A DNA stretch of 64,000 bases from a virus (lineage: Duplodnaviria > Caudoviricetes): IMG/VR virus record IMGVR_UViG_3300031555_001562, one strand, 5' to 3'. The notes under the pieces were generated by a model, which was not told where the DNA came from, did not search any database, and worked only from the letters and a program-made list of their open reading frames with translations. Each line of letters begins with the position of its first letter. Position 1 is the stretch's first letter. This document shows, piece by piece, positions 107-24,854 of the stretch. Both the position numbers and the translations under genes were made by a program.

Positions 107-115
107 GTGCAAAAG

Positions 116-163: not shown

Positions 164-248
164 TTGGACACATCTCCGATTTCCGTTGTGCTGCAACAAC
201 TTTTTGGAACACTGCACCAGATTTATTACAATCTTATTACAATGTTGC

Positions 249-7814: not shown

Positions 7815-7823
7815 ATTGACTCC

Positions 7824-8291
7824 TTACAGCTTGCAGATCAGAATTTCAATGTCTTCGCCAGAGAAAACATCGTCAATCAGATCCATAACCTGATCCCATT
7901 CCAGCTTATCCAGGCCGCAGCCGATCAGGGGCATTGCCAGCTTGGTAATACTCAGATCGATACACTGATCGTGCATGTCACACAGGGTCTCATACAGATC
8001 AGAGTATGTAGGCTTGTGGAAGTATCTGGGCTTGGAAACAAGATTGAACACATTGTCAACAAGCAGTGCCTTGCCAACATTTGCATACTTGCAACCATCG
8101 GGGATGGGATGGAACTTATGCAGCTTAAAGCGCATATTGTAGATCTCGTTAAAGGTCTTTGCAATGCCAGCGCCCAGTGCATAGTCGCCACTGATGCAGT
8201 GTGCCAGGTAATAACCCTGTGGAACCTCAAAGAGATTACCATTGATTTCAGTGATAGTCATAATGACCTCCAAATTATTCTGTTTTGACAC
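7824..8291 (-). CDS. Macrodomain protein (TARG1/DarG-like)
   Basis: GNLF, LAHCISGD.ALGAGIA..F, NLVSK, LAMP.IGCGLDKLEW. Confidence 0.9.
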   Translation of the reverse strand: MSKQNNLEVIMTITEINGNLFEVPQGYYLAHCISGDYALGAGIAKTFNEIYNMRFKLHKFHPIPDGCKYANVGKALLVDNVFNLVSKPRYFHKPTYSDLYETLCDMHDQCIDLSITKLAMPLIGCGLDKLEWDQVMDLIDDVFSGEDIEILICKL

Positions 8292-9215
8292 CTATATATT
8301 CCAATACTTCTTTCATTCCCAGTCCACCGCTTTCCCACGGTTTCATACAGTAATTCCAAAGTTTTGGATGGGTGACTTTTAATTGTTGAAAACGATTTGG
8401 TTCTTTCTCAAGATGACATCCGAATCCACAAAATACACATCCTGTGCGATGGCATCCGGTTGTCTTAAATTTACCATTCTTATCCCGAACAATGTCTCCA
8501 TATACAGATGCATATGGAATATTGAATCTTTTTAAGTATTCAAGGATATCTTGCTCTTTCCAAAAGGATAGAGGCTGAGAATACTGTTCCTTGCCCTTGA
8601 AGACGTTGCAACCGTTATTAAGCCATTTTTGTTTTCTATTCTGGCTTTCGCTTGCCATTGTTCCGAAAATTGGTTTTAGACCAGTTTCTTTCGCAAACTT
8701 TTGATTTGGCTCCTTCTTCATCTTATGACAGCAGTAGTCAGAAGTTTTGAATGGAGCATCGATCAGAAATGCCCATTTGCCATTTCCACCAAACATTGTA
8801 TTCTGGACTTCTCCACGAATATATTTAGCTCGCATGCAATTAGGATTTCTTTTTGCGCTTGAAATATATCCAGCAATTCTCTTGCTAACTATTGGGTATC
8901 CGAACGTCTCAATGACTTTTCTAAAGTTCATACTCGGTTTAAGCCATATTACGTTGTCAATTGTTTTCACAAACTCTCGCAATTCGGGATATTCCAATCC
9001 TGTATCAATGAACACAGCAGGAACGTCTGGATATATTCTACGAACCAGGTCTAAGAGGACTGTAGAATCCTTCCCCCTGAGAAAGACACATAAACCTTGC
9101 CTTGGTTCTTTATATACCATTCCATGATTCTTGTCTGCGTAACTTGAATTTTGCGCTCAAGGCTCCAGGATTGCATTATCCGCAAATCTTCATTTGTGTA
9201 TTTCATTTCTCTCAT
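8275..9215 (-). CDS. PAPS-reductase-family protein, frameshifted at G5 (9073-9077)
   Basis: Upstream frame MREMKY...VYVSFSGG joins downstream KDSTVLL only if G5 becomes G6, restoring the SFSGGKDS PP-loop; CC..MKK and RTGCVFC present. Confidence 0.85.
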
Positions 9216-9260
9216 CTATGTGTCCTTTTACAAATTGATCTGCAAATAACAGGTATACCA

Positions 9261-12200
9261 TTAAAGGTTATCGATTTTCATGTATTTCGTTAGCCACAGC
9301 TCGTCAACACCGGGAACCGGCTCGTAGTCACCGCTCTCAGTTCTTCTTAGCTTTGGCTTTTTGGTTTGAGAATAGATTCTAACAAGGTCTCCCTCAGCCA
9401 ATCTATTCTTACTGAAGGTGCGCTTATCCACCTTGCATTCAACAATTGTACCGTTTTTCAGAGAATGCAGTTTCAGCTTTGGAGCATACTTCGTATCCAC
9501 TGCCAATACAGCTGCCATGCCAGCATATTGCTTCTCGGCAATATCAACATATCCAAGATTCTCGACTTGTGCAGCGATTCTTTCTTTCAGAGTTCTTGGA
9601 TGATATCTCAGTCCATTTGCGATTGAGATCAGCATTTCTCTCATGTTCATTTTGAACATCTTCTCTGTCTCGGTGAATGCGAACGGTCTCACATCTTCTT
9701 CTGTAAGGCCAACCTTTGCCAGACTGTCCTTTTTCAGCTGTACCTTATCTCCAAGAGTGTCATACAGCTCATACTGCCGGAGCAGTAGATTTGCGTCGCC
9801 AAATTCAGAGAAGAAGTCAAGATCGATCAGAATCTTCATCTGTCTGGAATTGATCTTTGTTTTCTCTTTCAGATCATAAACCAATTCCATAAATGACTTA
9901 TACTTGTTGTTTCTCAGAGCATAAATCTCATCAGCAACAGCTGCATTCATATTTTTGATAGACTGGATTCCTTTATAGATACTGTTATCTTCTCTGGAAA
10001 TTGAATAGTCGCTCTTTGAATACCGGAATTTGATAGATTTCAGTGAAATACCAAAGTACTTCAGCTCATTGGTCAACTTGAGCGTTCTTTCACTGTCACC
10101 AACATAATAGTTAAGTGCAACGGTGTAATACTCAAGAGGATAATGAGACTTCAGATATGCACCATACAAGCTGTCATATGCGTATGACAGGGAGTGCGAA
10201 GCATTAAAGGAATACTTTGCGGCCTGTTCAACGACAGTCCATGTCTCAATGAAACCATCTGGTCTTTTGACCTTATCTTCCCAGCCTTTCTGAAGTTTAC
10301 CTTTCAATTCAGCCAACTCAGCGTCTTTGAATTTCTTTTTTGCAATCTTCTTGATGATGTCGTATGATCCTGTTTCTGGGATTCCCAGCCAGATCAAATA
10401 CTTCATAATCAATTCCTGATAAATCATTCGATGGTTGCCTTCTACAAGCAACTCGTCAAGTTCTGTGACTCCGGTTGTATACGGCTTTCGGTTGATGAAG
10501 TCTTGCAACAAACTTGCACATCCTGGGCGGATGATTGCAACGAATGCGGACATTTCTGAAACACTCTTCGGTTGATATGTTTTAACAAGTCCGGTTGCAA
10601 AATCACTATCAGCCTGATTGATCGTACATGTCAGACCGTTTTTGTAGATATCGAATGTCTTTTCATCAAATAGACCATCGATCTCTCTAATTGTTGGAAT
10701 TGGAATTCCTGCAAGATTACAAACATCTCGGATGATTGCCCAGACCGTAACAGTCAGATAGTCATTCTTCAGATATTTGTACTTATCGCAGTTGTATCCA
10801 TCCAGAAGACAACACATCTTACCTTTACTGGTTCTGACAAGTCCAAGCTCTCTTCGAACCGGCTTGTCATACAGCAACATGGAACAAGGAGACTCTGAAA
10901 CACTTTCAACAACACCGATAAAGCGTTTACTTTCTTCAATGATTGACTTCCATTTCTTATCTTCTCTGTAACTATCAAGATCTTTTGCAATATCGTCGTA
11001 CTCAGAGATATGCTTGCCTATACCTTTGCAATACAGGCGGAATGCAGAAGCGTCTTGCAGTGGTTTCCATGCGACCATCCATGCGCAGTTTTCTTTGCCA
11101 AGTAGGTCTTCCGTGGCCTTGATAAAAGGTTCTCTCGCAGTTGTGTTCAGATCGATATCAGGTAGAGATCTTGCGCCAAGAATTCTCTCAACAGACATAA
11201 ATCTGGTTGGGAACAGTGTGATTGGTGCGGCAATTCTGTCAATATCCGTTAGGCCAAGCATCTTAGTGACATAGAAACTTGGCGCAGATCCTCTGCCAGT
11301 ATTTGTGAGTCTGCCGTCATACTTCTCCTGACCATCCTTAGTAACCTTGTAATCGATCAAGAAGTAGTTCTCCATATGAGTCTTCTCGATGATATCTACT
11401 TCATACCGGATAGCATCTAGGTATTCTTGATGGCGTTCTTTGGGAATGTTCTTGCGCTCAACTAACCACTGGGAGTTGATGATATTTCTCAGCTCTTGCT
11501 GCGGATTATCAGACACGGACGGTAGCTTAATGTCATCATTGATAACAGTAATCTCTTCGCATTCATCGAAGATCAGGGTACTTTCAAGTGCTTGTTGCAC
11601 CTGGGCGCTTGTCAGAATGCCCTGTTTTTTGTATCTCCTAAAAATCTCATCTGAGTCCGGATAATCAAGTAGCATTTCACCTTCATCTTCGTAGAACATG
11701 CCCTTTCCTCTGAGGAAAATGTCTCTGTACTGGGCATCTCCTGGATAGATGTAGTGGCTATCATTTGCATGGATAATTGGAATTCCTGCATCTTCACTGA
11801 ACTGAAGTAACTGCCGATTCACTTCCTTTTGTATATCTATATTGTGATCCTGAACTTCAAGGAAAAAGTTACCTCTGAAGCGGTTATTCAGTGCAAGCAT
11901 AAGCTCTGGGTTGTTCCAAATACCAGCGACGCATGCTGTTGTGATGACAAAATTGCCGGGAGTCAGCGACATCAATGACTTCTTATCAATTCGTGGCTTA
12001 TAGTAGAAGCCATTTTCATGAGCCTCCGTCATGATGTCATTCAGCTGCATGACACCCTCATTGTTCTTTGCGATGATTACAAGGTGTCGATTTGATCTGT
12101 CTTTTTCTTGGATATCGTCAACGTAATATGCCTCTGCGCCGTAGCACATCTTCAGGCCGTATTTCTTTGACACATCCATCCAATCGAAGATATTTCCGGT

Positions 12201-12338
12201 AACACCATGATTAGTCGTAAAGACTGTGGTGTGTCCAAGTTCGATTGCACGCTTGCAATATTCTTCTGGTTTTACAATAACGTCAGTAGTCCAAGGGTTT
12301 CCCCAATGATCGTGTTTATGGTAGTTGTGGTAAATCAT
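9261..12338 (-). CDS. dnaE: DNA polymerase III alpha subunit
   Basis: PHP domain (HKHDH, TNHG, NDSHY), GRGSA, LPDID, YSFNASHS; likely start MIYHN. Confidence 0.95.
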   Translation of the reverse strand: MIYHNYHKHDHWGNPWTTDVIVKPEEYCKRAIELGHTTVFTTNHGVTGNIFDWMDVSKKYGLKMCYGAEAYYVDDIQEKDRSNRHLVIIAKNNEGVMQLNDIMTEAHENGFYYKPRIDKKSLMSLTPGNFVITTACVAGIWNNPELMLALNNRFRGNFFLEVQDHNIDIQKEVNRQLLQFSEDAGIPIIHANDSHYIYPGDAQYRDIFLRGKGMFYEDEGEMLLDYPDSDEIFRRYKKQGILTSAQVQQALESTLIFDECEEITVINDDIKLPSVSDNPQQELRNIINSQWLVERKNIPKERHQEYLDAIRYEVDIIEKTHMENYFLIDYKVTKDGQEKYDGRLTNTGRGSAPSFYVTKMLGLTDIDRIAAPITLFPTRFMSVERILGARSLPDIDLNTTAREPFIKATEDLLGKENCAWMVAWKPLQDASAFRLYCKGIGKHISEYDDIAKDLDSYREDKKWKSIIEESKRFIGVVESVSESPCSMLLYDKPVRRELGLVRTSKGKMCCLLDGYNCDKYKYLKNDYLTVTVWAIIRDVCNLAGIPIPTIREIDGLFDEKTFDIYKNGLTCTINQADSDFATGLVKTYQPKSVSEMSAFVAIIRPGCASLLQDFINRKPYTTGVTELDELLVEGNHRMIYQELIMKYLIWLGIPETGSYDIIKKIAKKKFKDAELAELKGKLQKGWEDKVKRPDGFIETWTVVEQAAKYSFNASHSLSYAYDSLYGAYLKSHYPLEYYTVALNYYVGDSERTLKLTNELKYFGISLKSIKFRYSKSDYSISREDNSIYKGIQSIKNMNAAVADEIYALRNNKYKSFMELVYDLKEKTKINSRQMKILIDLDFFSEFGDANLLLRQYELYDTLGDKVQLKKDSLAKVGLTEEDVRPFAFTETEKMFKMNMREMLISIANGLRYHPRTLKERIAAQVENLGYVDIAEKQYAGMAAVLAVDTKYAPKLKLHSLKNGTIVECKVDKRTFSKNRLAEGDLVRIYSQTKKPKLRRTESGDYEPVPGVDELWLTKYMKIDNL

Positions 12339-12346
12339 AGGCAAGA

Positions 12347-13153
12347 TCACTTCCAATCTGCCGTCGCACAATACTCACAACTAGCTCTAAAATTGCAAAG
12401 ATTCTTACAGAAGAAATAATCAAGAGTAGGATCGAAACTTTCTTCAGACTCAATAATGTGGATTGTATCTTCAAGCCATTTCATCGTATCGTCATATTCG
12501 CTCTTCTTGAACGGAATGGTGGCAAATCTGCCCATATCCTTGAAGTGGTTCCATGTAATTTCTTTTGGGAACTCTCCATATTTCTGATAGATGGCATAGC
12601 AGTAAATGTACATTTGCTTCTTGTAGTGATTAAAACTCTTCTCTGAGTTTTTCTTCACTTCTCCGTTCTTCTTGAACGGATATGGTGCGCTCTTATGATC
12701 CAGAACGACTATTCTGCCGTCTTTCTTGTCTCTTAGCAGCAGATCAATATAGCAGACGAATTTGTATCCATTGATCTCAAATTCGATTTCTTGCTCTACT
12801 CCAAGAACCTCATAGTTATCAATCCAGGAGAAGTCTCCACTTCCCAGATAATCGGCGCACAACTCGTATGTTTTCTCCCTTGTCGATGGTTTGACTTCGT
12901 AGAAAACATTCTCGTCAAAATTCTCTATGTAGTATTGCAATGCATCAACCGGACTCATAGATCCGCTGAAGATCATTGCCAGAATTTCGTGCATGAATGA
13001 TCCTGTTTCTGCATAGAAATTACCTTCAGACAAATACTCTTCGTCATTGTTGATGATATAGTTCAAGTAGAAACCATATTTGCACGTGTCAAAATTGCTT
13101 AGTCTTGAGTAAGACCATCGCATTTTGTCAATTTGCTCTTTATATTCGCTCAA
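12347..13153 (-). CDS. PD-(D/E)XK nuclease (AddB/RecB-like)
   Basis: WSYSRL, G.FMHE, YIDLL, VLDHKS, Q..IY, C-terminal C...C.F...C. Confidence 0.85.
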   Translation of the reverse strand: MSEYKEQIDKMRWSYSRLSNFDTCKYGFYLNYIINNDEEYLSEGNFYAETGSFMHEILAMIFSGSMSPVDALQYYIENFDENVFYEVKPSTREKTYELCADYLGSGDFSWIDNYEVLGVEQEIEFEINGYKFVCYIDLLLRDKKDGRIVVLDHKSAPYPFKKNGEVKKNSEKSFNHYKKQMYIYCYAIYQKYGEFPKEITWNHFKDMGRFATIPFKKSEYDDTMKWLEDTIHIIESEESFDPTLDYFFCKNLCNFRASCEYCATADWK

Positions 13154-13173
13154 ATAAATCCTCCCTATTCACC

Positions 13174-14184
13174 CTATACCACCTTTCTTTTCTGGCTGTA
13201 TAATGTCTCCCAAATCTCTTCTCCGCAGTCTACCGGGGCATTCTTTGTCTCTTTGCCGCCCAAAAGCTTCTTTCTATCTTCTATGACAAAAACATTAGTA
13301 ACTCGCTTGAGCTTATCAATGTCTTGCCGGACATCACTACTCCTGTAATCAACATCGCAATCATATGCGAACACGATATTTACCCTGAGCTTAACCAAAA
13401 GATCAATCTGTTCTTTTGTGAGCGTGTGTTTTTCGGCTGAAGCACAGTTTTTATAGCCCCAACCATAGGCTTTCATAACGGACTTTACTGACTCAAAAAT
13501 GATGATCTCATTTGCATCCAGAACATATTTCAGAGTCGTGTTCAATCCCTGAAAGTAATCCATAACTCCAACCTGGAAGTAATTGATATACTTCGGGATC
13601 TTCATCTGTTTGTAATTCTTATATCTTGTTCTTGCTTTGATATTGATTAGATTGCCGCAAATGTCATATACGGGATAAATAATTCTGTTCTGCCATGTAT
13701 CAACTCGGACACCGAATAAGTCCATAACGTCTTGTTCAATGCCTTCGTCTAACCACTCTTTGACTGGTTCAATTTGATACTTATCAAGCTCAGAATCATC
13801 TAGTATGCGATGTTCATATGCGCTCTTTGGTTTCATAGCCAGCGCACGCAGCTTCTTTAGAAACGTGATGGTTTTTGAGTGGCACATTTTGCTAAGATCT
13901 AAGTTTGCAAGCTTTGCGGCCTTTTCAACCGCATCCTCAAACTTCATTTTCTCAAAATCGATCAGATAACCGATTATGCCGCCAGACTTACCACAGGAAA
14001 AGCAGTAGTATGAGTTCTTAGCCGGAGTAAAAGAAAGCGATGGAGTCAGATCGGTATGTAGTGGACAGTGTGCCCAATAGTCATTTCCTTTTTTCTCCAA
14101 CTCCATCGTTTGGCTAACGTAGCCAAATAAGTCGGCATTCTCGTTGATTTGCTGTAACATTTCGTCATCGTAATTGGTATTCAA
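13174..14184 (-). CDS. dnaG: DNA primase
   Basis: CPLH.D.TPS..YYCFSC CHC2 zinc finger; TOPRIM-like IIFES...FAYDCD. Confidence 0.85.
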   Translation of the reverse strand: MNTNYDDEMLQQINENADLFGYVSQTMELEKKGNDYWAHCPLHTDLTPSLSFTPAKNSYYCFSCGKSGGIIGYLIDFEKMKFEDAVEKAAKLANLDLSKMCHSKTITFLKKLRALAMKPKSAYEHRILDDSELDKYQIEPVKEWLDEGIEQDVMDLFGVRVDTWQNRIIYPVYDICGNLINIKARTRYKNYKQMKIPKYINYFQVGVMDYFQGLNTTLKYVLDANEIIIFESVKSVMKAYGWGYKNCASAEKHTLTKEQIDLLVKLRVNIVFAYDCDVDYRSSDVRQDIDKLKRVTNVFVIEDRKKLLGGKETKNAPVDCGEEIWETLYSQKRKVV

Positions 14185-14206
14185 CGATTTTGCCTCCTTT
14201 GCTTAA

Positions 14207-15550
14207 TTAAAAGTCGCTTCTGCGCTCGTGCGGCTGCGCTTCCACAATACTCATTCGATCACCGTCGAACACAAAGTCGATGTAATCACTATCGTCATCT
14301 TCCTGCATCTGCTTTCCTAGTCGGTTGACGTAGATTTTCGCAAATGCATTTCCGCACTGGATTCCATCTCGTGCAATCATTTCTTGAGTCTTATATTCCC
14401 ACTTGATGCCAACGGAGAGGTATCTGTTGATTTTGATACTGTCGGCAACTTCACCGTTTCTGTTAAGCTGGCATGCAGCCAAAACAGCTAGATCAAGCTC
14501 TCCGGCAATATTGTTCTTCAGGAAGTCACACTTTGCGCCCAGAACGTTGTAGTTGTCGCTCGTTGAAGTTTCATTACTCTTTAGATAATCGAACACAACA
14601 AAGACAAGACCCATCTTTCTTTGAAGCATCTTACAAACTGAATACAGCTTTTCGTTTGTAATGTTTGGATCGTAGATATGGACAAATGACTGTTCCTTCA
14701 GCCAAGCAATCCAATATTTGATCTTTTCAGCCTCTTCATCTGAGTAGTTGCCGTTCTTAATGCGCTTCATTTCAATTCCTGTTAGGTGAGAAATCAGGCG
14801 CTCGGTATATAGTCTGGTTGGCATCTCGCTGTCAACAACCAGAGTTGGGACACCATTCTTTAGCTTATGTACAACCTCATTCATCAGAAAAACAGACTTA
14901 CCTTGCTTGTACTTGGCCTGAATAACGACCAATTCGCCAGGTTCATAAGTGTAGTAATCGATGAAAGAGCTGTACTTTGATGGAATACCATACATGCCAT
15001 CTGAAGTTCTACGGTTTACAATTTCACCCCAAATGTCATCAATGTCATTGCCTAAAGTATGAATCTCATTGGATGTGATATACTTTTGGGTCAATGCATC
15101 CAATTCGCTGTAGACATTGTTGTTCAACTTTTCAAGGTCAAACTCAGGATTGAAACAGTTTGCGGACAACTGGTTTAATGTCTTTACGAGATCTCGCTTG
15201 AATGCCAGAGTAACAACATTATCTGCAAGCATCTTGTACTCTTCGATAGTGTGCCGTGCTGTCTCTTTGTACAGCTCCATAAACTCTTGAACAGATGGAA
15301 GATTGTACTTGTCAATCGTTCTCTGTACACCGTTGTGGCTCTGGATTTTGCTTGAAATGTTGTATGCATCAATATTGGTGATTCCACTCTTGTACAGATC
15401 TTGGATCGCCCAGTAGATACAACCATTCTCTACTCCATAGAAGTATCCAGGGAGCAGATAATCAGTGTGCAAAATGAACTCAGGATGGTAGATCAGAGTG
15501 CCGATAATACCGCTTTCTGACTGAATATCTGAAAGTTCTGCAATATCCAT
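14207..15550 (-). CDS. dnaB: Replicative helicase, DnaB-like
   Basis: AKYKQGKS Walker A, DSEM, FDYLK, QLNR. Confidence 0.9.
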   Translation of the reverse strand: MDIAELSDIQSESGIIGTLIYHPEFILHTDYLLPGYFYGVENGCIYWAIQDLYKSGITNIDAYNISSKIQSHNGVQRTIDKYNLPSVQEFMELYKETARHTIEEYKMLADNVVTLAFKRDLVKTLNQLSANCFNPEFDLEKLNNNVYSELDALTQKYITSNEIHTLGNDIDDIWGEIVNRRTSDGMYGIPSKYSSFIDYYTYEPGELVVIQAKYKQGKSVFLMNEVVHKLKNGVPTLVVDSEMPTRLYTERLISHLTGIEMKRIKNGNYSDEEAEKIKYWIAWLKEQSFVHIYDPNITNEKLYSVCKMLQRKMGLVFVVFDYLKSNETSTSDNYNVLGAKCDFLKNNIAGELDLAVLAACQLNRNGEVADSIKINRYLSVGIKWEYKTQEMIARDGIQCGNAFAKIYVNRLGKQMQEDDDSDYIDFVFDGDRMSIVEAQPHERRSDF

Positions 15551-15561
15551 TTTCGCCCTCC

Positions 15562-16044
15562 TTATCTCTTTCCGCCCAGAATGCTATTGAATCCGCTGGG
15601 TTTCTTGTTGATGGAGAACTTAGGCGCAGTATCTTCAGCCTCTTTAACTGTAAAATCTGCCGTCTCAACCACTTTCTTGACCTTGGCTTTTTCGTATGCA
15701 GTTTTGATTTCTGGATAATCAAGGTAATACCGAAACCCAGACGGATAACTCAAATTCTTCTTGTGATCGATCACATACTGAAGTGTAAACAGCATGTAAT
15801 CAGAGGAAACGCCGTTTGAGATTAACTGGGAGAGCATCTTATTGAGCTGAGAATGCACAACGGTTGCGCTGATCTTCTGTACCCAAATATTTCGGAATAG
15901 CTGCAAATCCGACTTCTCCTGATGGCAGTCCTTGTGGAAGTAGTTATTGCCTTCCTTGACAAATTCATCTGAATTAATGTCAATAGATCCATCGTGTTTA
16001 CACTTGCTATACTTGCACTTCTTAATACCAGTATCTCTAGCCAT
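15562..16044 (-). CDS. Hypothetical replication-associated protein
   Basis: CxxxxC..HxxC N-terminus; directly upstream of dnaB. Confidence 0.65.
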   Translation of the reverse strand: MARDTGIKKCKYSKCKHDGSIDINSDEFVKEGNNYFHKDCHQEKSDLQLFRNIWVQKISATVVHSQLNKMLSQLISNGVSSDYMLFTLQYVIDHKKNLSYPSGFRYYLDYPEIKTAYEKAKVKKVVETADFTVKEAEDTAPKFSINKKPSGFNSILGGKR

Positions 16045-16047
16045 GCT

Positions 16048-16674
16048 TCATTCCTCTTCTTCCAATAGGTATGTGGCCTCCATATCGGCCTGATGAACAG
16101 CTAGAATAACCGGGTACTTCTTGATCGCAGTAGTCAGCGTGTTCCAATATTCTTTAGGCTCAGTAAAGCCCATGTGCCATCTGATTGCATAGCGCTCGAT
16201 AGGCTTCAGCTTGATGAATTCCTCGATCATCATCACGGACTTTTCGCCATGACCATAAGGAATCTTGTCATCGGTGCTGTAACCCTTGACGGCTTGCCAA
16301 TCGAATCTGCCGCCCTCGTCTTTCTTAGTGCCAGTGTCGCTGTACACCTTTTTGTTTTTGAACTCAGGAACGTACAGATATGACTTGCACAGATCGTGCA
16401 GTAGAGCAATCAGAATCAGGCTTTCATCATCGACTTCTCTCAGAACCTCTGCCCAAATGGGATTCTGCTTCTTGCTCAGAAGACATTCATAAAGGTTCAT
16501 AGAGTGTTCCAGCAGACCACCATCGTGGCATGAATGGAATCTGGTGCTGGCTGGCGCACGGTAGAAGTCAGACTTCCGGATGTACGCCAGCAGCTTATCA
16601 ATTCCGTCACGTTTCACGCTGGTCAGCAACTGCTCAAACTTTTCAATCAGCTCTTGAATGTTCAGTTCTGCCAT
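16048..16674 (-). CDS. HD-domain hydrolase
   Basis: APASTRFH, GGLLEHS, ALLHDLCK, GHGEKS, AIRWHMG. Confidence 0.9.
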   Translation of the reverse strand: MAELNIQELIEKFEQLLTSVKRDGIDKLLAYIRKSDFYRAPASTRFHSCHDGGLLEHSMNLYECLLSKKQNPIWAEVLREVDDESLILIALLHDLCKSYLYVPEFKNKKVYSDTGTKKDEGGRFDWQAVKGYSTDDKIPYGHGEKSVMMIEEFIKLKPIERYAIRWHMGFTEPKEYWNTLTTAIKKYPVILAVHQADMEATYLLEEEE

Positions 16675-16689
16675 TGTGTTGCCCTCCGA

Positions 16690-17109
16690 TTAGAAGGGCA
16701 GCTGAACATCATCGTCATCCAGCATTGCCACGTCGGATGCAGGAGCTTTCTTCTTACCCTTGGCAGGAGCAGGAGTTGCGGCGGCGGAATTACCGCCATT
16801 ACCGTTGAAGCTTGCGTCTTCCAGGGCGAACACGGCACAGTTCCAGTAGGTAACTTTCTTGTCGCCGTCGTACTTGTTGGTGGTTGCGCAGTTGCCGATC
16901 TTCACGGATGCACCGTTCTTGGGAATCTCGCCCAGACCCTTGACGAACTCATAAGCTTGACCAACAGCACTGACGAACTTGTGCTGGAAGTCGGTCTCAT
17001 AAACGCCGGTGTCCTTGTTCTTTCTGGAGGTACTCAGGTTGATGATGCCGTAAGTACCCTTGTCGGTGAACTCCCAAATCTTTGCGAATGCGCCATTCTG
17101 AAATGCCAT
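16690..17109 (-). CDS. ssb: Single-stranded DNA-binding protein
   Basis: OB-like core with acidic DDDDVQLPF tail; next to recombinase. Confidence 0.8.
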   Translation of the reverse strand: MAFQNGAFAKIWEFTDKGTYGIINLSTSRKNKDTGVYETDFQHKFVSAVGQAYEFVKGLGEIPKNGASVKIGNCATTNKYDGDKKVTYWNCAVFALEDASFNGNGGNSAAATPAPAKGKKKAPASDVAMLDDDDVQLPF

Positions 17110-17122
17110 ATGTAATTACCTC

Positions 17123-17761
17123 TTACTTTCTAACAGCCAACAGCTGCTTCTTCAAATTGCCCAGGATATCGGAATCGTTGATGTTCTTGGGGTTGCCCAG
17201 AATCAGGTCTTCAGCCATATCGGGATTGGCCTGTCTCTCAGCAGCCTTGCACAGTTCCTGAACCTTGGCCTTTGCCTTTTCGGACAGAGAACACTTCTTA
17301 GTGACCAGCGCCATAACTTCGTCCAGCAGCTCGTTCACCTTGGAAGTCTCTTCGGGAAGATCTTCACCCTCGTAGATGTATAGACCCAGACCGTGCATAG
17401 CGATAGCCTTAACCAGACAACGCTTCATGGCCTTGTTTGCATCGACGGAAGTGATCTGATCGGCTGGCATAGACTTGTTCTTGAAGTCCATAATCGCCAG
17501 AACCTCAATGACCTCATTACCGTTGACGGTGACACCGACCTCAACCCAACCAGTCTTACCATCATCATGCCAGAACCGGGTGTTGCCGCCCTCGTCCATG
17601 ATCTGAGGATAAATCTTGAAACTTGCGTCGGGATCAACCTTCTTGACCTCTGCCCATGCGGAGATCCAAGACAGATACTTCAGGCCATTCTTGGTCTTGA
17701 CCTTGTTTGATACGTCTACTGCATTCAACGTATCGAAAACGCTCTTTACAGGTTCGTTCAT
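17123..17761 (-). CDS. Sak (Rad52-like) single-strand annealing protein
   Basis: LKYLSW..AW, NKA..RCLVKAIA.HGLGLYIYEGEDLP. Confidence 0.9.
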   Translation of the reverse strand: MNEPVKSVFDTLNAVDVSNKVKTKNGLKYLSWISAWAEVKKVDPDASFKIYPQIMDEGGNTRFWHDDGKTGWVEVGVTVNGNEVIEVLAIMDFKNKSMPADQITSVDANKAMKRCLVKAIAMHGLGLYIYEGEDLPEETSKVNELLDEVMALVTKKCSLSEKAKAKVQELCKAAERQANPDMAEDLILGNPKNINDSDILGNLKKQLLAVRK

Positions 17762-17848
17762 ATATGCGTCCTTTCGTACTTTGTTGCGTTGCCTATTCCG
17801 GTTAAAAAATAGACAACATCTATATCATCACTCTATAGAGTGTTATTG

Positions 17849-18262
17849 TTATTTGCATGAATCACCATTGGAGATTGACACTTCTGTATGTTTCCAATCA
17901 TCAGTGATCCATTTTTGAATAAGGCTTTCGGCCTTTTGCTTGTGTTGCTGTTTTGCTTCTCTGTCAGAAATGATTCTTGACACAATTGATTGTACGTATT
18001 TATCCATGTTATTCTTCCAGTTTTGATTCAAAGCCTTATCAAATAGTTCAGCTCTTGTTTCTATGCTGAGGCTATGCATAACGCAGATATAACTGTGATA
18101 AATACTTGGGCAACTTAATGCAGCAAAAGCATCCAGACTTTCTTGCCAACATGTCCAAGACCTGTCTCCATTTTTCCTGAATTTTATATACAAAATAGGA
18201 AAGTCACTAGAAAACATATTCAGCTTGCATTTGTATTCAATTTCGTAAATCAAAATTGACAC
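17849..18262 (-). CDS. Hypothetical protein
   Basis: 137-aa AT-rich ORF with GAGG RBS. Confidence 0.5.
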   Translation of the reverse strand: MSILIYEIEYKCKLNMFSSDFPILYIKFRKNGDRSWTCWQESLDAFAALSCPSIYHSYICVMHSLSIETRAELFDKALNQNWKNNMDKYVQSIVSRIISDREAKQQHKQKAESLIQKWITDDWKHTEVSISNGDSCK

Positions 18263-18265
18263 CTC

Positions 18266-19279
18266 TTAGTGTGCAGCTAAGTCTGCCGCATGGAGTTTCA
18301 TGATATCATCGAACATTTCCTGACCGATTGCCTTTACAGCCTTTCGTCTGGATTTCTCTGATTTGTCCCACGACATAAAAGGATGCATGTGGAAATAAAT
18401 CAGATTGGAAATGTAGATCGCATCTCCATCAGATACTCCCATAGCATCTGCATACAGCAGGAAGTCATATGCTCCAACACAGTGGTGCTGGTAGTAATGG
18501 CACTGACCATCCTCTACACCACGAGTATTGAATCTGGTTTTGGTGAAAACCTTACCGTTATCATGGAACAATGCTGCAAGCTGTAGCCGCTTATCATCCG
18601 GATACTTCTGTTTAATGAAGTCTTCAGCTGCTCTGCAATGTGCGCCAAGAGTCAGTCTATGATGACTATTCTCCTGGGACATGAGATCAATTCCATGAGC
18701 TTCATCAAACAGATATGTGTATGTATACTTCATACGGTTAACCTCATCACCGTAATTGTATACAAAACCAATTTCATCGAAGCCTTCAGCATAATCGGGC
18801 GGACACCAGTTCATGTACATGCGCTTAATCACATCGACAGGAACCTTGCGATCTCGGCCTGAATTGAATTCAACACATGTTTCAAACGGTGTTATAAAAA
18901 CAACACACTTTTTATAACAAGGAATGTTGCTCAACTCTGCCAGAAATGCAGTTCTTCTCTTCTTGTTTATGTTGGTTGCATCATAAATGACATTCTTGCC
19001 GTCAATCAGATCTGCCTTAATTCTACTGTGCAGAACCGCAAACAGATCTGTATTGTTGTCCTGGCAGTTTTCATCTCCATACAGCTCTTCACGAAGAGCA
19101 TCTGATGAGTGAATCACATAATTTTTCTGTGTTTTACTGTATGTACTCTTGCCAGAACCCGGCAAACCTACAAGAATTTCAATTATAGGCTTATCTGCTG
19201 ATAAAATTGGTTTTTTATCATCAAATTTGTCTTCGCAAGCATCGAAACTTTCGAAGGTTGCAATTTTCAGTTCTTCCAT
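18266..19279 (-). CDS. Polynucleotide kinase (P-loop) + HD domain, RNA end-healing type
   Basis: GLPGSGKST, SSD..R, DATN...RR; C-terminal HH..TL..H, HDNGK, QHH.VGAY. Confidence 0.85.
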   Translation of the reverse strand: MEELKIATFESFDACEDKFDDKKPILSADKPIIEILVGLPGSGKSTYSKTQKNYVIHSSDALREELYGDENCQDNNTDLFAVLHSRIKADLIDGKNVIYDATNINKKRRTAFLAELSNIPCYKKCVVFITPFETCVEFNSGRDRKVPVDVIKRMYMNWCPPDYAEGFDEIGFVYNYGDEVNRMKYTYTYLFDEAHGIDLMSQENSHHRLTLGAHCRAAEDFIKQKYPDDKRLQLAALFHDNGKVFTKTRFNTRGVEDGQCHYYQHHCVGAYDFLLYADAMGVSDGDAIYISNLIYFHMHPFMSWDKSEKSRRKAVKAIGQEMFDDIMKLHAADLAAH

Positions 19280-19282
19280 ATT

Positions 19283-19762
19283 TCAAGCCTTACCGTGAAT
19301 TGCATCGTTTTTCTTGAGAAGATTATTCAAAACATTGCTTGCAATCTTCATATCGACGTTTTGCTTCTTCAGCACGGGCATAACCAGCTTCATGATCCAG
19401 TTTTTCTGTCCGCTCGTGGCGATCATACCATTGCATGCACAGATGTAGTTAATCATCTTCTCAATTTCGGACTCGTCAGTGATGAGCTGCGGAGCGTATT
19501 CTTTAACAATAGACAATTGCTTCTGATACTCCTCCAGCTTGTCTGTACGATCCGGGGGACAATCATTTACCATTTCCTGAAGATTCTTCTGTTGTTTCTT
19601 CAGAACCTCGTTCACCAGATCTTCAGTAATGTTGTCCTTACATTTCTTGTCGATGGCTGCATTCAGAACAGCTTCGACCATACTGGACAGGACTTGCTTG
19701 CGGAACTTATCTCCGCTCTTCAAGGCCATGACCATATCATTTCTCAGTTTCTCAATCGTCAT
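19283..19762 (-). CDS. GatB/YqeY domain protein
   Basis: L..DM..ALKSGDK.R..VL, Y.PQL pattern. Confidence 0.75.
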   Translation of the reverse strand: MTIEKLRNDMVMALKSGDKFRKQVLSSMVEAVLNAAIDKKCKDNITEDLVNEVLKKQQKNLQEMVNDCPPDRTDKLEEYQKQLSIVKEYAPQLITDESEIEKMINYICACNGMIATSGQKNWIMKLVMPVLKKQNVDMKIASNVLNNLLKKNDAIHGKA

Positions 19763-20042
19763 TTTCTATTTCCTCTATTCCAAGTTCTTCCATGAAATAA
19801 CGAATTAATTGAAATGACCCAGCACGCAGAGAATAAAGATGATCCTTTGCAAGATCAGTTCCGGTATATTTGTCATACCACTTGTCTTCGTTTTTCTTCA
19901 CAAAATCATAGATCTTGCTAAGTTTCTCAACAAGTTTCTTTTTATCTGCAACTGCTTTTGCAAATTCGCATGTGGTATCGCATTCTTCGTTATAGTTCTT
20001 TCCAGACCTGAGATAGCAATGCTCATAGCATGGGTTAAACAT
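19752..20042 (-). CDS. Hypothetical protein
   Basis: Likely start MFNPC; Cys-rich N-terminus. Confidence 0.5.
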   Translation of the reverse strand: MFNPCYEHCYLRSGKNYNEECDTTCEFAKAVADKKKLVEKLSKIYDFVKKNEDKWYDKYTGTDLAKDHLYSLRAGSFQLIRYFMEELGIEEIENDD

Positions 20043-21207
20043 TGTTTGATTCTCCTGAAAGATCAAAATACTGTTGTGCGATATCCGGGAACAGTGCTTC
20101 AACACGTTCCATTTCTCGCCAATCGGATCCTTTGATGCCGATATCTTTCAAATAACCATCAATGTCTCTCTTGTACTTTGTGTATCCATTGCGGCGCATT
20201 CCCTTGCATTTGCAGAACAATCTGAAGGAGAATGTCTTAAACATGTGCGGCTGATTGCACCAGCTTGCCACGGAAGAATAGAACGTCGAGAACTCTGAAT
20301 CATAGACTTTCTCAAAGCGCATAATGTATGGCTTTGCATCAAATCTACTCAGAATTGAAATTCTCTCAAAGAGATTTCGAATATCGTTTTCCCAGAATTC
20401 CATGTCATATTTGCCGTTCTTATCGCAGCCGCAGAATACATAGAACTTCAGCTGACGTTTCCATTCCGGAACTGTTTCTCGGATTAATTGCAATTTAGAT
20501 GTAATCAGCTCTTTGTCTTCAATGTTATCGAATGCAAAGATAACTTCACCGTCATACTTCCAACTTGCAATTTCAAGAATCTTTTCCTTTGTCAACAGTC
20601 TTTCATCAAGACCTTGCTTGAAGTGGAATCGTCTTCCGGTATCTATGACCGGCTGAATTAATTCTCGCCACTTTGGGTATCCAAGGAAGTTATCATCCAG
20701 GAAGCAGATCTTTGGCCTTGTTGGGTCATAGAACTCTGCCAATGGACTTGCTGGTTCCACTTTCTTGTAATTCCTGTTTACGCAGTAATAACAACCACGG
20801 AAGCATTTCCTTGTTAAGTAACCAATTGAGTAATCAAGATAGTATTTGAAGTTGTTCCGATTCTCCCCCCTAGCGAAAATCGCTTCATTAACCCAATCAT
20901 CATATAGGTGATAATCCGGCATAATGTGTTCGATCTCTGGTGGGAGAGGTGGAGCATTATCGTAAAAGAATCCTGTGCCGCCATACGTGACATTTGGCAT
21001 CGCAAGTACATCTTCAGGCACATGCGTCTTCGTGAAAACCTTTGAGATGTAAACTTTGTCAAACGCTTGCAGACCTTCGTAGTCAGTCTTCAACTGGACA
21101 CTATCTCCGTTCTGCTTGTGATATGCGGCAATTTTCATTGAACACAGATTAGGGAATCTGTGTTTGTTTTTGCCGATAATCTCGGCATCGATAATTGCTA
21201 CATTCAT
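20035..21207 (-). CDS. Radical SAM protein
   Basis: TRKCFRGCYYC (CxxxCxxC), LDDNFL, QGLD.RL. Confidence 0.85.
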   Translation of the reverse strand: MNVAIIDAEIIGKNKHRFPNLCSMKIAAYHKQNGDSVQLKTDYEGLQAFDKVYISKVFTKTHVPEDVLAMPNVTYGGTGFFYDNAPPLPPEIEHIMPDYHLYDDWVNEAIFARGENRNNFKYYLDYSIGYLTRKCFRGCYYCVNRNYKKVEPASPLAEFYDPTRPKICFLDDNFLGYPKWRELIQPVIDTGRRFHFKQGLDERLLTKEKILEIASWKYDGEVIFAFDNIEDKELITSKLQLIRETVPEWKRQLKFYVFCGCDKNGKYDMEFWENDIRNLFERISILSRFDAKPYIMRFEKVYDSEFSTFYSSVASWCNQPHMFKTFSFRLFCKCKGMRRNGYTKYKRDIDGYLKDIGIKGSDWREMERVEALFPDIAQQYFDLSGESNNV

Positions 21208-21403
21208 CGTTGTTTCCTAATTCATTTTCAACATCAGATATTTCTAATATCAGATTGTCTTTTTGAACCGTTGTCAGTGCATTGACTAAACCATCGAATC
21301 TAGGTTCAAGTTGTTGCTTTGTAGGTTTCTCCCCCCGGCCACGCATGGCTACGGTTAAACAATTTCGCATTGTCAATTCACTTTCCATTATTGATTTCTT
21401 CAA
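21149..21403 (-). CDS. Stand-alone methyltransferase TRD-like mini-protein (in frame across G6)
   Basis: AMRGR..QQLEPR.DG..N.LTTVQKDNLILE resembles variable-region modules of phage C5-MTases; start uncertain. Confidence 0.6.
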   Translation of the reverse strand: MKKSIMESELTMRNCLTVAMRGRGEKPTKQQLEPRFDGLVNALTTVQKDNLILEISDVENELGNNDECSNYRCRDYRQKQTQIP

Positions 21404-21901
21404 AAATGATCTGCTTCGGGAGAAATTTACTGCAAATATACACGCTGCTAAAAGGTGGGTTTAGAGATGGTTTTTGTTCTTCATAACTCCTGAAGTATGC
21501 AATGCGTTTATTCATATACATAATTTCAAAGTCATTGTTTTTGAAGAGATCGAATCTGTGTCTACTCTCAAACAGGCCAACAACGCCTACCAGCATAGCA
21601 AACGGTTTTCCAATCTCGAACAGCCTCTCCAATACCTTGCCTTTAACTGAGTATGGTGGATTACTGATTATGTAATCGCATTTAGGCGGATCCATTTCAA
21701 AGAAATCCTGACCATTAGCAATGTGCGTCGCAATTACCGTAAATCCAGCCTCCCGGAACAGCTTTACGAATAAGCTTTCTTCTGTGTCAAAAGGACACCA
21801 GATCGTGCCGGGGGTGTAATATATTTCATCACTGGTTCAATTGCATAACCAGGAGTATAGAACTCATCGTTACCGCTTCCGGCAACTTTGTCCATTTTCA
21901 T
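21378..21901 (-). CDS. N6-adenine DNA methyltransferase, frameshifted at C5 (21810-21814)
   Basis: MKMDK..NDEFYTP..ITPP joins GTIWCPFD...SNPPY only with one extra C. Confidence 0.8.
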
Positions 21902-21913
21902 ACTGTACCCTCT

Positions 21914-22696
21914 TTACACTAAGCCCCATTCTGCGAATTTCTCAAATCCGCCCATAGAGCCGATATAGTTTCTAGCAATCTCCACGATCTTATCGTAAGG
22001 GATGCCATTTACGTATTCATCTCCAATTGCGCAAAACAATTCTACTGGCTTTCTTGTTCTCTGAGCCTCAAGCCATGCATAAATGTTGACACTAACATCT
22101 GCTTTGCTGAGATCTTTACCATGCAAACCGCCGCCAGTAACGGAGTCAGCCATATCACTGCCAAGCTTCCGATTCGTTGCGCCACTATCGACATCCGTTC
22201 CGCCAGTCCAATCGCCAAGAGGATTGACAATTGCGTTTGGATATTTGGCCTTCAGATCATCGCTATCTGCGTTGCTCTGGCATATAATGAGTTGGCTTCC
22301 GTTCATGATGTACTTGCCATCATACGGATAGTCAGCATAAATTGCTTTTGCAATATTGGACATGTTGTTTTGTTCAACGGTAACTGGCATACCTTTGAAA
22401 ATGCCATTATCACCGCAACGAATGCATTTTTCCTGATTTCTTGCAAGATGTACATCCTGCGGAATGATCCGAAGATCTACTGCTATATTTCCTGCGATAC
22501 GAGTAATAGCTGCAATTACATAGTCATGGTCTAAGTCCACAGACGTTTCAGCAATGACATGGCATACACCATGACCGATAAGCACTTCTACTGCAATCTT
22601 AGGATTGTCTTGAGCCTTATAAGCAAGATCAACTATTGCACCAGCAATACGATCTGCAATTTTGTCCGGATGAGACGGATTTACTTTTTCAAACAT
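21914..22696 (-). CDS. metK: S-adenosylmethionine synthetase (short phage type)
   Basis: HPDKIAD.I, GDNG, GG...DSGATNRK, GGGLHGKD.SKAD. Confidence 0.9.
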   Translation of the reverse strand: MFEKVNPSHPDKIADRIAGAIVDLAYKAQDNPKIAVEVLIGHGVCHVIAETSVDLDHDYVIAAITRIAGNIAVDLRIIPQDVHLARNQEKCIRCGDNGIFKGMPVTVEQNNMSNIAKAIYADYPYDGKYIMNGSQLIICQSNADSDDLKAKYPNAIVNPLGDWTGGTDVDSGATNRKLGSDMADSVTGGGLHGKDLSKADVSVNIYAWLEAQRTRKPVELFCAIGDEYVNGIPYDKIVEIARNYIGSMGGFEKFAEWGLV

Positions 22697-22707
22697 GGTT
22701 TGTTTCC

Positions 22708-22840
22708 TTATCTTTCGATTAGCTTAAAGGCACTTCGTATTGAACTTGCACCAATATTGGTTGTGAGTGTTCCAATTGTTTCTTGATCTGCTCTAACTCT
22801 ACTATTGTAGTCATCGTAGATAATTACATCACGATTTGAC
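22708..22840 (-). CDS. TRD-like module reachable by -1 shift at C5 (22842-22846)
   Basis: Frame reads DVIIYDDYNSRVRADQETIGTLTTNIGASSIRSAFKLIER*. Confidence 0.55.
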
Positions 22841-23281
22841 CGGGGGTAAATTCAGTCTCAGTACCATCATTTTCGTTCTGGTTTATATCTTCATAGAGTC
22901 TGTCAAGCGCCTTTTCGATTGCGCCAATTCCTGAGAAGTAGCTGCCAACCTTGAGATCTTCAAACAGATACGGCATTGCTTTATACAGTTCTTTGAAGAT
23001 GAAATACGGAACAGAAACAACGATGCTGTTACCGGCTTGCTTGTATAACTGACTATTGCTAATTCCAGCAGCTTGAGCCTTATCGAAATCTTCATCTGTG
23101 AAATCCATCAAACGCCAACATTCTCTTGGTGTCAGCTTTCTAATACGATAACCAGCTGAAGAAGTGTTATTTTCAATCACTCGCTTGTCACCCCCGCATC
23201 GATGGTTCGGATTGCTCCTACGTAATCTCCTGAGAATACTCGCAATCCTTCATCGCATCTGCGTTCACATATTGCTTTCAT
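22824..23281 (-). CDS. C5-methyltransferase small subunit (TRD + motifs IX-X-I), frameshifted at G5 (23191-23195)
   Basis: IRKLTPRECWRLM (IX), LYKQAGNSIVV (X), then KVGSYFSGIGA (motif I) at the C-terminus; N-terminal MKAICERR..RTIDAGG joins with +1 G. Confidence 0.8.
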
Positions 23282-23450
23282 CTAATTCCTCATTCTTACT
23301 TTTGTTTTGGAATTGATCTGCTATCAAAATCCAATACTTAACACCTAAACCAGCCGTTAATGTTGGAGATACCCCCCCGGTCGAATAGACGGTATTGGAT
23401 TGATGCTTACCAGTTCCTTTTTCCAGATAGCCTAATTCTTCAATCTTCAT
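23265..23450 (-). CDS. TRD-like mini-ORF (in frame across G7 23372-23378)
   Basis: HQSNTVYSTGGVSPTLTA. Confidence 0.65.
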   Translation of the reverse strand: MKIEELGYLEKGTGKHQSNTVYSTGGVSPTLTAGLGVKYWILIADQFQNKSKNEELDESNM

Positions 23451-23639
23451 CTTTCTTAATCGGTTCAATAACCAAAATCATAGAGTTTTCAGCCATTAAA
23501 GTAGGACAAATTTGCCCCCGGCCTGAACTCGACCTCTACGGGTTTTTGATTTCGGAAAGCTGAAATCTGCAACTCCTGGTATTTCACATTCAATGTAACC
23601 TTGCTTAGTTGCCTGTTTAATTCTTATTGTCTCCGCCAT
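23440..23639 (-). CDS. TRD-like mini-ORF, frameshifted at G5 (23515-23519)
   Basis: GGAGG RBS; IKQATKQGYIEC..ADFSFPKSKTRRGRVQAGG|QICPTLMA. Confidence 0.65.
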
Positions 23640-23786
23640 GCTTAACCTCCACTAGAGTTTTCGGGGGTCTTTATGGCTGGTTGCAGAGATAGTACAAGAA
23701 ATACCATCAAGTGAATAAACACGTTCTCTTTGATGTTCTTTCCCGGTATTTGAGATTAAACAGCCAACAACGATAATTTCATTCAT
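23617..23786 (-). CDS. TRD-like mini-ORF, frameshifted at C5 (23663-23667)
   Basis: EHQRERVYSLDGISCTISATSHKDP|PKTLVEV. Confidence 0.65.
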
Positions 23787-23934
23787 TGCTTTCTATAACC
23801 CCATTCATAGGTTGATTCCCAAATCCTTTGTAATCTCTGGCAAGTAAGGTATTTGCAACATCAATTTCTCTTTCAAATTTACCGCATTGGTTCGAAAACA
23901 AACCAGCGGTTAACTCTCTTGAATGAGATCCCAT
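23779..23934 (-). CDS. TRD-like mini-ORF
   Basis: DVANTLLARDYKGFGNQPMNGVIE. Confidence 0.65.
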   Translation of the reverse strand: MGSHSRELTAGLFSNQCGKFEREIDVANTLLARDYKGFGNQPMNGVIESNE

Positions 23935-24757
23935 TGATGTTTGTCTACACTGCATCTGCCCCCGTGCGAATTGCATTTGAGACAGTCTTGTTTAGCTTGC
24001 CACTTACAATCAGATCTTCTACAAGTTCTTTTGCCTTCGGAGTATTGATATAGAATGACTCATCTACATCATCTTCCAGAACATCTCTTAGGCGCTTGCC
24101 ATTGTCGAATGGCTCTGGGAATGTAAATTTACCATTGTCAAAACTCTGCAAGATGATAATCAGATATACTCGTTCTCTGTTTTGTGGAACACCGTAATCT
24201 TTTGCATTGAGAACTTTGTAGTATGTGTTGTAGCCGTATTCATGTAGTTCATCAATGAACATATCGAAAGTTTCTTTGAATGACTTGCCGACAATATTCT
24301 TGACATTCTCATAAATACCCCACACGGGTTTGTTTGCACGAATGATCCGAAGCCACTCTACTAGCAGTGAGCTTCTTGTCTTGTCAAGATTCTCACTATT
24401 GCAATTAGGACACTTGTGCCGCTCTGACCAATGGACAGTTAGCGGATTATACTCATGACCACAATCCTTGCACTTCCACTTGCTGCCAGCCTGTTTGCCA
24501 GCAACACTGAAGTCCTGGCATGGGCTGCCGCCGCAGATCATATTGAATGGGTTTAGTTTGGTCTCATCTACTTTTGTGATGTCGCCAAGATTTAGGCTTT
24601 TGTCAACGCCATGCACTGCGCAGTAGCTCGTCTCAGCAAATCTATCAAATTCGCAGAAGTTTACGAGTTCATAGCCGCTATGGGTTGAAGTATTGTTTTT
24701 ATCAGTATTTGACATTACTTTCCTACCATTTTCCTGCGGTTTTATATCGATTTTCAC
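23910..24757 (-). CDS. C5-methyltransferase catalytic subunit (motifs II-VIII, no motif I); terminal TRD frameshifted at G5 (23959-23963)
   Basis: GGSPCQDFS (IV), YENV (VI), PQNRERVY (VIII); CxxC/CxxC insert; stops at 23945 as written, +1 G extends it to RTGGRCSVDKHQWDLI. Confidence 0.85.
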
Positions 24758-24854
24758 CCATTTTCAAGAGAAAAGCATTTAGTTCATCGAATTCCAAACA
24801 TCGAAACTATCGCATGTTCCTCTCGTAAAAAACAGATAAAAACAATATTTGATT

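Follow-up and report, generated by a model that had tools for sequence, protein, structure and literature searches.

Length-variable G/C tracts in methylase and neighbouring modification-type genes of a gut-metagenome phage as probable phase-variation switches

Multispecific C5-cytosine methylases with tandem target-recognising domains are carried by the Bacillus phages SPR, phi3T and rho11s, and M.AquI and M.EcoHK31I are C5-methylases of two subunits. In bacterial phasevarions, simple-sequence repeats in methylase genes turn methylation on and off. Phase-variable bacterial methylases, including homopolymer-bearing genes of Helicobacter, Neisseria and Haemophilus, have been reviewed (PMC12707154, PMC11868660). 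Among phages, the polyG tracts of Campylobacter Fletchervirus are described by the citing articles as sites where slippage in phage genes switches expression and gives mixed progeny (Sorensen et al. 2021, Cell Rep 35:109214; cited in PMC11868660 and PMC12823448), and the former article credits phage phase variation, in the receptor-binding proteins of Campylobacter phages, to the same study. The agt glucosyltransferase gene of phage T2 is a contingency locus whose reversible frameshift sets up a trade between a modification-attacking nuclease and nucleases attacking unmodified DNA, and A-run loci were reported in T2 and T4 (Gomez, Barrick, Waters, bioRxiv 10.1101/2025.10.21.683753). Here we analysed 64,000 nucleotides of a Caudoviricetes virus (IMG/VR record IMGVR_UViG_3300031555_001562), referred to as the window, and describe short G/C runs in its methylase and other modification-type genes, all on the minus strand, which are probably hypermutable contingency tracts that switch modification genes and modules by slipped-strand phase variation.

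The G/C runs of five or more bases in the window were 20 G5/C5 runs, two C6, one C7 and one G7. Thirteen of these 24 runs were located within 7.3 kb of modification-type genes (binomial P = 4e-7), a concentration greater than chance. Eleven runs of 5-7 bases lay inside open reading frames (ORFs), and in the window seven of the tracts were out of frame and four in frame. An earlier note on this DNA had listed seven G5/C5 runs, starting at 9073, 21810, 22842, 23191, 23515, 23663 and 23959, each breaking or truncating a reading frame, as well as four longer runs in frame at 20865, 21331, 23372 and 35148. The run count confirmed all of these, and each of the seven coincided with a change of open frame. 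The junctions predicted there for one added base, SFSGGKDS, ITPPGTIWCPFD, QAGGQICPTL, KDPPKTLV, RTGGRCSVD and DAGG(G)DKRVIE, are each present in natural relatives. The claim that one added base repairs all seven sites stood in part: frames were restored elsewhere, but at 23959 the added base opens just 16 codons and at 22842 the catalytic core is unbroken without it. Likewise, the claim that all seven lie in DNA-modification genes applies to the methylase loci but is assumed for the PAPS-reductase-like gene; for this enzyme and for the radical SAM enzyme described below, a role in DNA modification is assumed from the neighbouring genes.

Tract lengths were tabulated in 26 loci, each from a different sample and 93-98% identical to the window, a clade of close relatives reached through exact-cluster look-ups. 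A scan for homopolymers at which a one-nucleotide change merges two ORFs was swamped by ordinary gene junctions, and the comparison of close relatives was used instead; it covered the ten tracts other than that at 35148. Every tract compared took two to five lengths, between 5 and 9 bases, across the 26 relatives; this comparison across related phage genomes had been proposed as a check, and its outcome is that the tracts are variable and not fixed. Three G/C runs used as controls, in the genes for MT-A70, RNA ligase and YqeY, were invariant across the relatives, and so were all 20 coding A/T runs of at least five bases at 19.3-29.2 kb, some of which (A5) lie within the methylase genes that carry the tracts. 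Alignment of loci L277 and L278, from two runs of one study, revealed no mismatch in 7,459 aligned bases and six indels, all of them at tracts (23959, 23372, 22842, 21810, 21331 and 20865), and loci L289 and L285 showed no mismatch in 2,020 bases, with the tract of the PAPS-reductase-like gene G8 in the former and G7 in the latter. The tree constructed from flanking sequences indicated five to eight independent changes per tract, with in-frame and out-of-frame states interspersed. The tracts mutate much faster than the sequence surrounding them.

Phages that are only 65-76% identical keep tracts at the same sites, C7-C10 in the N6-methylase gene (the 21810 site, where C9 is in frame) and G8-G10 in the C-terminal part of the C5-methylase (the 23191 site), and both in-frame and out-of-frame lengths occur. 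In other gut contigs the C5-methylase genes carry up to nine G7-G11 tracts per 6.6 kb, and near-identical pairs differ only in tract length; judged from these sequences, poly-G-rich methylase genes appear to be widespread in gut metagenomes. The metagenome relatives of the C-terminal part of the C5-methylase were at most 74% identical.

The C5-cytosine methylase locus (22711..24757) is circularly permuted and contains several recognition modules, as indicated by its ORF layout, by PF00145 matches on both ends (E 2e-44 on the N-terminal part, hereafter N-part, and 3.5e-11 on the C-terminal part, hereafter C-part) and by a TIGR00675 score above cut-off. In this clade the locus consists of the N-part, small module ORFs and the C-part. 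The N-part carries the motifs PCQ, ENV and QNRER, and the C-part carries motifs IX and X and, last, at its C-terminus, motif I (FxGxG). Intact single-chain homologues from bacteria, 556-596 amino acids (aa) in length, show the same permuted order with three to five recognition modules in tandem. One long C5-methylase hidden by five breaks was considered and rejected: stops between the modules persist after all +1 repairs, which leave separate ORFs, and several of these have an ATG and a Shine-Dalgarno sequence to themselves. Reassignment of a stop codon, the in-frame TAG between modules c and d, is disfavoured, as module d can be started from a separate ATG at 23639 with a GGAGG ribosome-binding site and the long genes are open under the standard code.

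The G5 tract at 23959..23963 lies at the end of the catalytic N-part and is a candidate three-way switch (relatives: G5 in four, G6 in seven, G7 in five). With G5 the product stops at 256 aa, with G6 it ends in module a (268 aa) and with G7 in module b (312 aa). The 16 codons opened by G6 read RTGGRCSVDKHQWDLIQES and then stop, and RTGGRCSVD is found in the natural 268-aa form, while G7 leads into the distinct 59-codon module b (..TLLARDYKG..; ...FEREIDVANTLLARDYKG...). The C5 tract at 23663..23667, in the mini-ORF of module c (relatives: C5 in three, C7 in three), ends the product at KDPRKL; C6 gives KDPPKTLVEVKHGGDNKN, and KDPPKTLV is read in the natural 56-aa form P0325. In the mini-ORF of module d the G5 tract at 23515..23519 (relatives: G5 in two, G7 in one, interrupted GGAGG in three) ends the product before the PTL core, and the natural 71-aa forms P0275 and P0277 read QAGGQICPTL. 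Module e (STGGVSPTLTAG) is in frame in the window with a G7 tract at 23372..23378; relatives have G6-G9 or GGTGGG, and most of them are without one C before the tract and are out of frame.

The C-part starts with module f (ATG at 23281), and the G5 tract at 23191..23195, of out-of-frame length, separates this start from motifs IX, X and I. Relatives carry G5 (nine), G6, G7, G8 and G9 (four) at this site; one added base restores DAGGDKRVIE, and relatives with G9 have a 152-aa ORF, MKAICE..IDAGGGDKRVIE.. The C5 tract at 22842..22846, at the C-terminus of the C-part (relatives: C5 in seven, C6 in three, C7 in three, C8 in one), leaves the catalytic core whole, and C6 adds the 39-residue module g (DVIIYDDYNS..TIGTLTTN..), as in the natural 157-aa forms. 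A free-standing ORF at 21152..21460 (VAMRGRGEKP...NALTTVQKDNLILE) resembles a C5-methylase target-recognition module; by tblastn it matches the C-terminal recognition-type module of the intact 596-aa homologue P0046, and it bears a G6 tract at 21331..21336 (relatives: G5 in eight, G6 in three). This ORF is situated beyond the N6-methylase gene, apart from the rest of the C5-methylase locus.

Several further differences were observed at the C5-methylase locus. In close relatives the N-part contains, beside PCQ, an intein with Hint and intein-splicing domains and in some cases LAGLIDADG, at a site corresponding to window 24518-24520 (L023:10191-11198; product P0001, 590 aa), and the window is without it. 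One relative differs by a single base in the length of an intergenic T6/T5 pair at 24827-24842, upstream of the C5-methylase start, where a promoter or leader may lie; no other A/T run was seen to vary. L259/L260 and related loci lack modules c and d, and L261-L270 lack the whole block of C5-methylase and metK. Module c (window 23670-23786) is divergent in L023, where about half of the bases differ between flanks that are 95-100% identical. Such sequences suggest that the recognition modules may undergo cassette exchange, and the module swap in L023 points to a C5-methylase locus that is working and diversifying.

The N6-adenine DNA methylase gene (21381..21901; phrog_799 and a weak match to Pfam Dam) is split into 29 and 143 codons, and intact natural forms of 172/174 aa are represented by P0296 and P0303. 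The C5 tract at 21810..21814, of out-of-frame length and placed at KYITPP/GTIW, parts MKMDKVAGSGNDEFYTPGYAIEPVMKYIT from TIWCPFD...NPPY..., and C6 gives KYITPPGTIWCPFD, which is found in the natural 174-aa form. Close relatives carry C5 (17), C6 (one), C7 (four) or an interrupted tract (three). A second N6-methylase, a paralogue (34648..35244; phrog_799), has a C7 tract in frame at 35148..35154 (FYETPPL); its distant relatives encode TPP without a run, and the relatives found were too distant to show variation at this site. Between the C5- and N6-methylase genes, at 21917-22696, lies a SAM-synthetase-like gene in which only the N-terminal Pfam domain was detected and which may supply the methyl donor.

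The radical SAM gene (20035..21207) codes for a product of 390 aa whose CX3CX2C cluster motif reads CFRGCYYC; it matched phrog_9298 (E 7e-51) and had no Pfam match at E 0.01. Its G6 tract at 20865..20870 is in frame in the window. The relatives carry G5 (five), G6 (15), G7 (four) and G9 (one); the gene is split in the G5 and G7 carriers, and the step of three bases between G6 and G9 keeps the frame.

The PAPS-reductase-like PP-loop gene (8275..9215; phrog_424; Pfam PF01507, E 2.6e-17) consists in the window of pieces of 54 aa and 281 aa, while in the close relatives L253-L255 it is an intact gene of 313 aa. All NCBIfam CysH models scored below cut-off for its product, which is therefore not regarded as a bona fide CysH. 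The G5 tract (in the mRNA sense) at 9073..9077, of out-of-frame length, falls in the SGGKDS motif: the mRNA reads TCA GGG GGA AGG, the upstream frame ends in ...VYVSFSGG followed by a stop, and ...KDSTVLLD lies one base out. With G6 the sequence SFSGGKDS is obtained and the PP-loop motif SGGKDS of PF01507 restored; the loop is complete only with this length, as in the 313-aa relatives. The lengths found in relatives were G6 (two), GGGGGA, G7 (six) and G8 (six), G6 being in frame. The IMG/VR relatives of this gene, at most 69% identical, encode the same residues without the tract. Directly downstream, at 6603-8260, are a conserved ORF of 145 aa and a gene with a PARP domain (ADP-ribosyltransferase-like), and this trio is kept in all close relatives.

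Exact-sequence look-ups found the truncated products of the window in independent JGI, ENA and Logan assemblies: the 281-aa PAPS-reductase-like product in 7 contigs, the 47-aa module d in 22, the 118-aa C-part in 16, the 105-aa N6-methylase product in 10 and the 45-aa N6-methylase leader in 21. Short and long forms fell in the same 90% clusters (281 and 313 aa; 256, 268 and 312 aa for the N-part; 105 with 172 and 174 aa; 47 and 71 aa; 44 and 56 aa).

Comparison of the segments downstream of the breaks with four relatives gave synonymous/non-synonymous counts of 15/0 for the C-part, 13/0-1 for module b, 6/0 for module g and 21-25/4-9 for the C-terminal part of the N6-methylase. A second count was made of segregating codons downstream of the breaks in carriers of out-of-frame lengths only, and it gave 50/10 for the C-terminal part of the N6-methylase, 22/3 for the C5-methylase C-part, 9/0 for module g, 11/3 for module b and 80/20 for the radical SAM gene; the ratio was reversed in both wrong frames. 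The segments downstream of the breaks are under purifying selection even in out-of-frame carriers. Since change in these carriers is mostly synonymous, either the out-of-frame states are short-lived relative to the time scale of substitution or the product is made anyway. Codon choice was also analysed. GGG, at 5.6%, is the rarest Gly codon, and long ORFs contain 144 Gly-Gly pairs, of which only three have the form GGGGGN. The tracts look selected rather than accidental, because the rare GGG is used in them and because the same residues are encoded without runs in more distant relatives of the second N6-methylase and of the PAPS-reductase-like enzyme.

On the reading that we prefer, polymerase slippage during phage replication would add or remove G:C pairs and bring the downstream part of a gene, or a module, into or out of frame, each site switching reversibly and independently of the others. 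DNA-polymerase slippage as the mutational mechanism, and switching within a single phage population, are what we infer, the latter from the differences between samples, from the interspersed states in the tree and, likewise indirectly, from the purifying selection in out-of-frame carriers. Eleven or more tracts would gate the PP-loop enzyme (9073), the radical SAM enzyme (20865), one N6-adenine methylase (21810), probably a second one, and the pieces of the C5-methylase. In the C5-methylase the tract at 23959 would decide whether the catalytic N-part ends with a stop, with module a or with module b, those at 23663, 23515 and 23372 would gate modules c, d and e, and that at 22842 would gate module g. 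The tract at 23191 would gate the C-part with motifs IX, X and I, and its off state should stop cytosine methylation unless an internal GTG at 23180 is used. The conjectured payoff, by analogy with T2 agt, is bet-hedging, in which modification would block some restriction enzymes of the host and expose the DNA to modification-dependent nucleases. The earlier note had put forward, among other mechanisms, that individual on/off switches by strand slippage set the modification specificities, and this is supported by tract lengths that differ between otherwise identical genomes, by natural in-frame variants and by purifying selection downstream.

Several observations weigh against this interpretation. 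A tract of 5-6 bases is short for slippage to be efficient. One out-of-frame length is dominant at some sites (C5 at 21810 in 17 of 25 relatives, G5 at 23191 in 9 of 16), and such alleles may be fairly stable. About one third of the tract states are in frame, as would result from length drift without selection on frame. Heterogeneity within a population, the defining behaviour of phase variation, is deduced here from differences from sample to sample.

A part of these observations would also be expected if the tracts were mutational hot spots in dispensable genes, collecting recurrent loss-of-function indels with no evolved reversible switching or bet-hedging. This is the alternative that survives best, and we consider it unlikely. 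Out-of-frame lengths are in the majority at several sites, the fraction in frame is that expected from drift, and cassettes are lost outright, namely C5-methylase with metK in L261-L270 and modules c and d in the L259 group. However, dispensable genes do not agree with the purifying selection found downstream of the breaks in out-of-frame carriers, nor accidental runs with the use of the rarest Gly codon where relatives avoid runs, and the retention of tracts at the same sites in relatives of 65-76% identity, the occurrence of frame-keeping changes of three bases and the mixture of in-frame and out-of-frame states in the tree are further points against it. Knock-out without switching is possible at single sites where an out-of-frame length is dominant, for example C5 at 21810.

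The purifying selection in out-of-frame carriers would follow equally if a full-length product were made from out-of-frame DNA by transcriptional slippage or ribosomal frameshifting while tract length drifts, an explanation that we regard as somewhat less likely still. If tRNA-Pro slipped in the P site at 21810 from CCG back to CCC, the product would, on the sequence, be exactly that of C6, and the G9-G11 tracts of relatives are within the range of runs on which RNA polymerases are known to slip. Runs of five, however, are too short for efficient polymerase slippage, and the length change is seen directly in the DNA. Recoding would need opposite directions of shift at one and the same site (G5 and G7 at 23515; C5 and C7 at 21810), and lengths of 5-9 span all three frames. 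Programmed -1 ribosomal frameshifting, the other mechanism offered in the earlier note, finds no support: none of the seven sites has an X XXY YYZ heptamer, the preceding base and the codon phase differ between sites, the seven downstream stretches of 69 nt fold no better than shuffled sequences (z -1.14 to +1.06) and tract length is not conserved. Transcriptional slippage may be a minor contributor, especially at the G9-G11 tracts of relatives. Sequencing or assembly artefact, in which true G6/C6 runs were under-called in this contig as that note had cautioned, would account for seven sites all one base below the in-frame length and for the run at 9073 as the sole indel in 9.6 kb compared with 97% identical relatives, but it is highly improbable as the main cause, given that the exact truncated proteins of the window recur in up to 22 other JGI/ENA/Logan contigs, that lengths of 5, 6, 7, 8 and 9 are all found, that the remaining 13 G5/C5 runs, the C6, C7 and G7 runs and all A/T runs of the window are in frame, and that short-read assemblies do not mistake G5 for G9.

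Within the reading of the runs as contingency tracts, a stronger proposal can be made for the C5-methylase, tentatively and with the odds rather against it: the locus could be a combinatorial specificity generator, in which catalytic halves are combined with free-standing or terminally fused modules a-g, each gated by a tract, with one tract choosing between two modules. In such a system the small module ORFs would presumably cooperate with both catalytic halves. If it were so, the progeny of one strain would carry many cytosine-methylation patterns, in addition to independent switches of adenine methylation, of the radical SAM enzyme and of the PP-loop enzyme; the locus would be a counterpart of shufflon-type specificity switching that is carried by a phage and driven by slippage, and no C5-methylase before it would have been found to accept recognition domains in trans.

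The phage genome is about 164 kb in size (the IMG/VR record has 163,674 bp and is rated complete), and the window corresponds to the last 64 kb of this record, reverse-complemented. By genome search, window positions 1-236, which contain no N, lie outside the record. A megablast search of the phage GenBank collection with 5 kb of the window gave no match. The neighbouring genes code for a DnaE-type polymerase, DnaB, primase, RNA ligase, a CCA-adding-type enzyme and other replication and RNA-repair functions. In L256:2590-4361, compared with window 24855-26752, the RNA ligase (403 vs 437 aa) and MT-A70 (138 vs 187 aa) are called shorter with no indel, probably through substitution of a start or stop codon. 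Nearly all relatives came from human-gut metagenomes, and the C5-methylase has intact homologues in Coprococcus and Anaerobutyricum, which makes a gut Firmicute the probable host.

The phage contingency loci demonstrated by experiment are few, being those in receptor-binding genes of Campylobacter phages and those in T2/T4. The present analysis suggests that contingency tracts are widely used by phages of the human gut and can act on a phage's own set of DNA-modification genes. With about a dozen independent switches, one strain could maintain a mixed population of epigenetic coats, which would help to explain the persistence of large gut phages across hosts with differing restriction and modification-dependent defences. 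There is also a practical side, in that genes of this kind are routinely taken for pseudogenes or for assembly errors, and strain tracking could be confounded by the state of the tracts. Our literature searches turned up no account of phage methylases switched by G/C tracts, nor of a multi-module C5-methylase switched at the level of its modules.

The phage shares with Fletchervirus the presence of homopolymeric G tracts inside phage genes. The Fletchervirus tracts are longer, are located in receptor-binding protein genes and act on adsorption, whereas the tracts of this phage are of 5-9 bases, number at least eleven, lie in DNA-modification genes and would act on evasion of restriction. With T2 agt it shares a homopolymer in a phage DNA-modification gene and the logic proposed here; the T2 switch, however, was demonstrated by experiment and consists of A runs (A9) confined to one gene, while here G/C runs in many genes, acting at the level of modules, are proposed from comparative genomics. 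Phasevarions involve cellular Type I/III restriction-modification genes with regulatory roles; the methylases described here are orphan phage enzymes, for which no nuclease partner was seen. In SPR, phi3T and rho11s, as in this phage, several recognition modules are placed between motifs VIII and IX and each is expected to give one target, but the Bacillus phage enzymes are single polypeptides of normal motif order, whereas here motif I is C-terminal and the modules are separate ORFs with their own tracts. Like M.AquI and M.EcoHK31I, the C5-methylase has its catalytic motifs distributed over two polypeptides with the split in the variable region; to our knowledge, free-standing recognition modules and hypermutable tracts are not known for enzymes of that type. 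Poly-G switches of phages (in Campylobacter phages) and the homopolymer switch of T2 agt are already known, and what is new here is the number of switches per genome, their concentration in DNA-modification genes, the module-by-module switching and the three-way selector.

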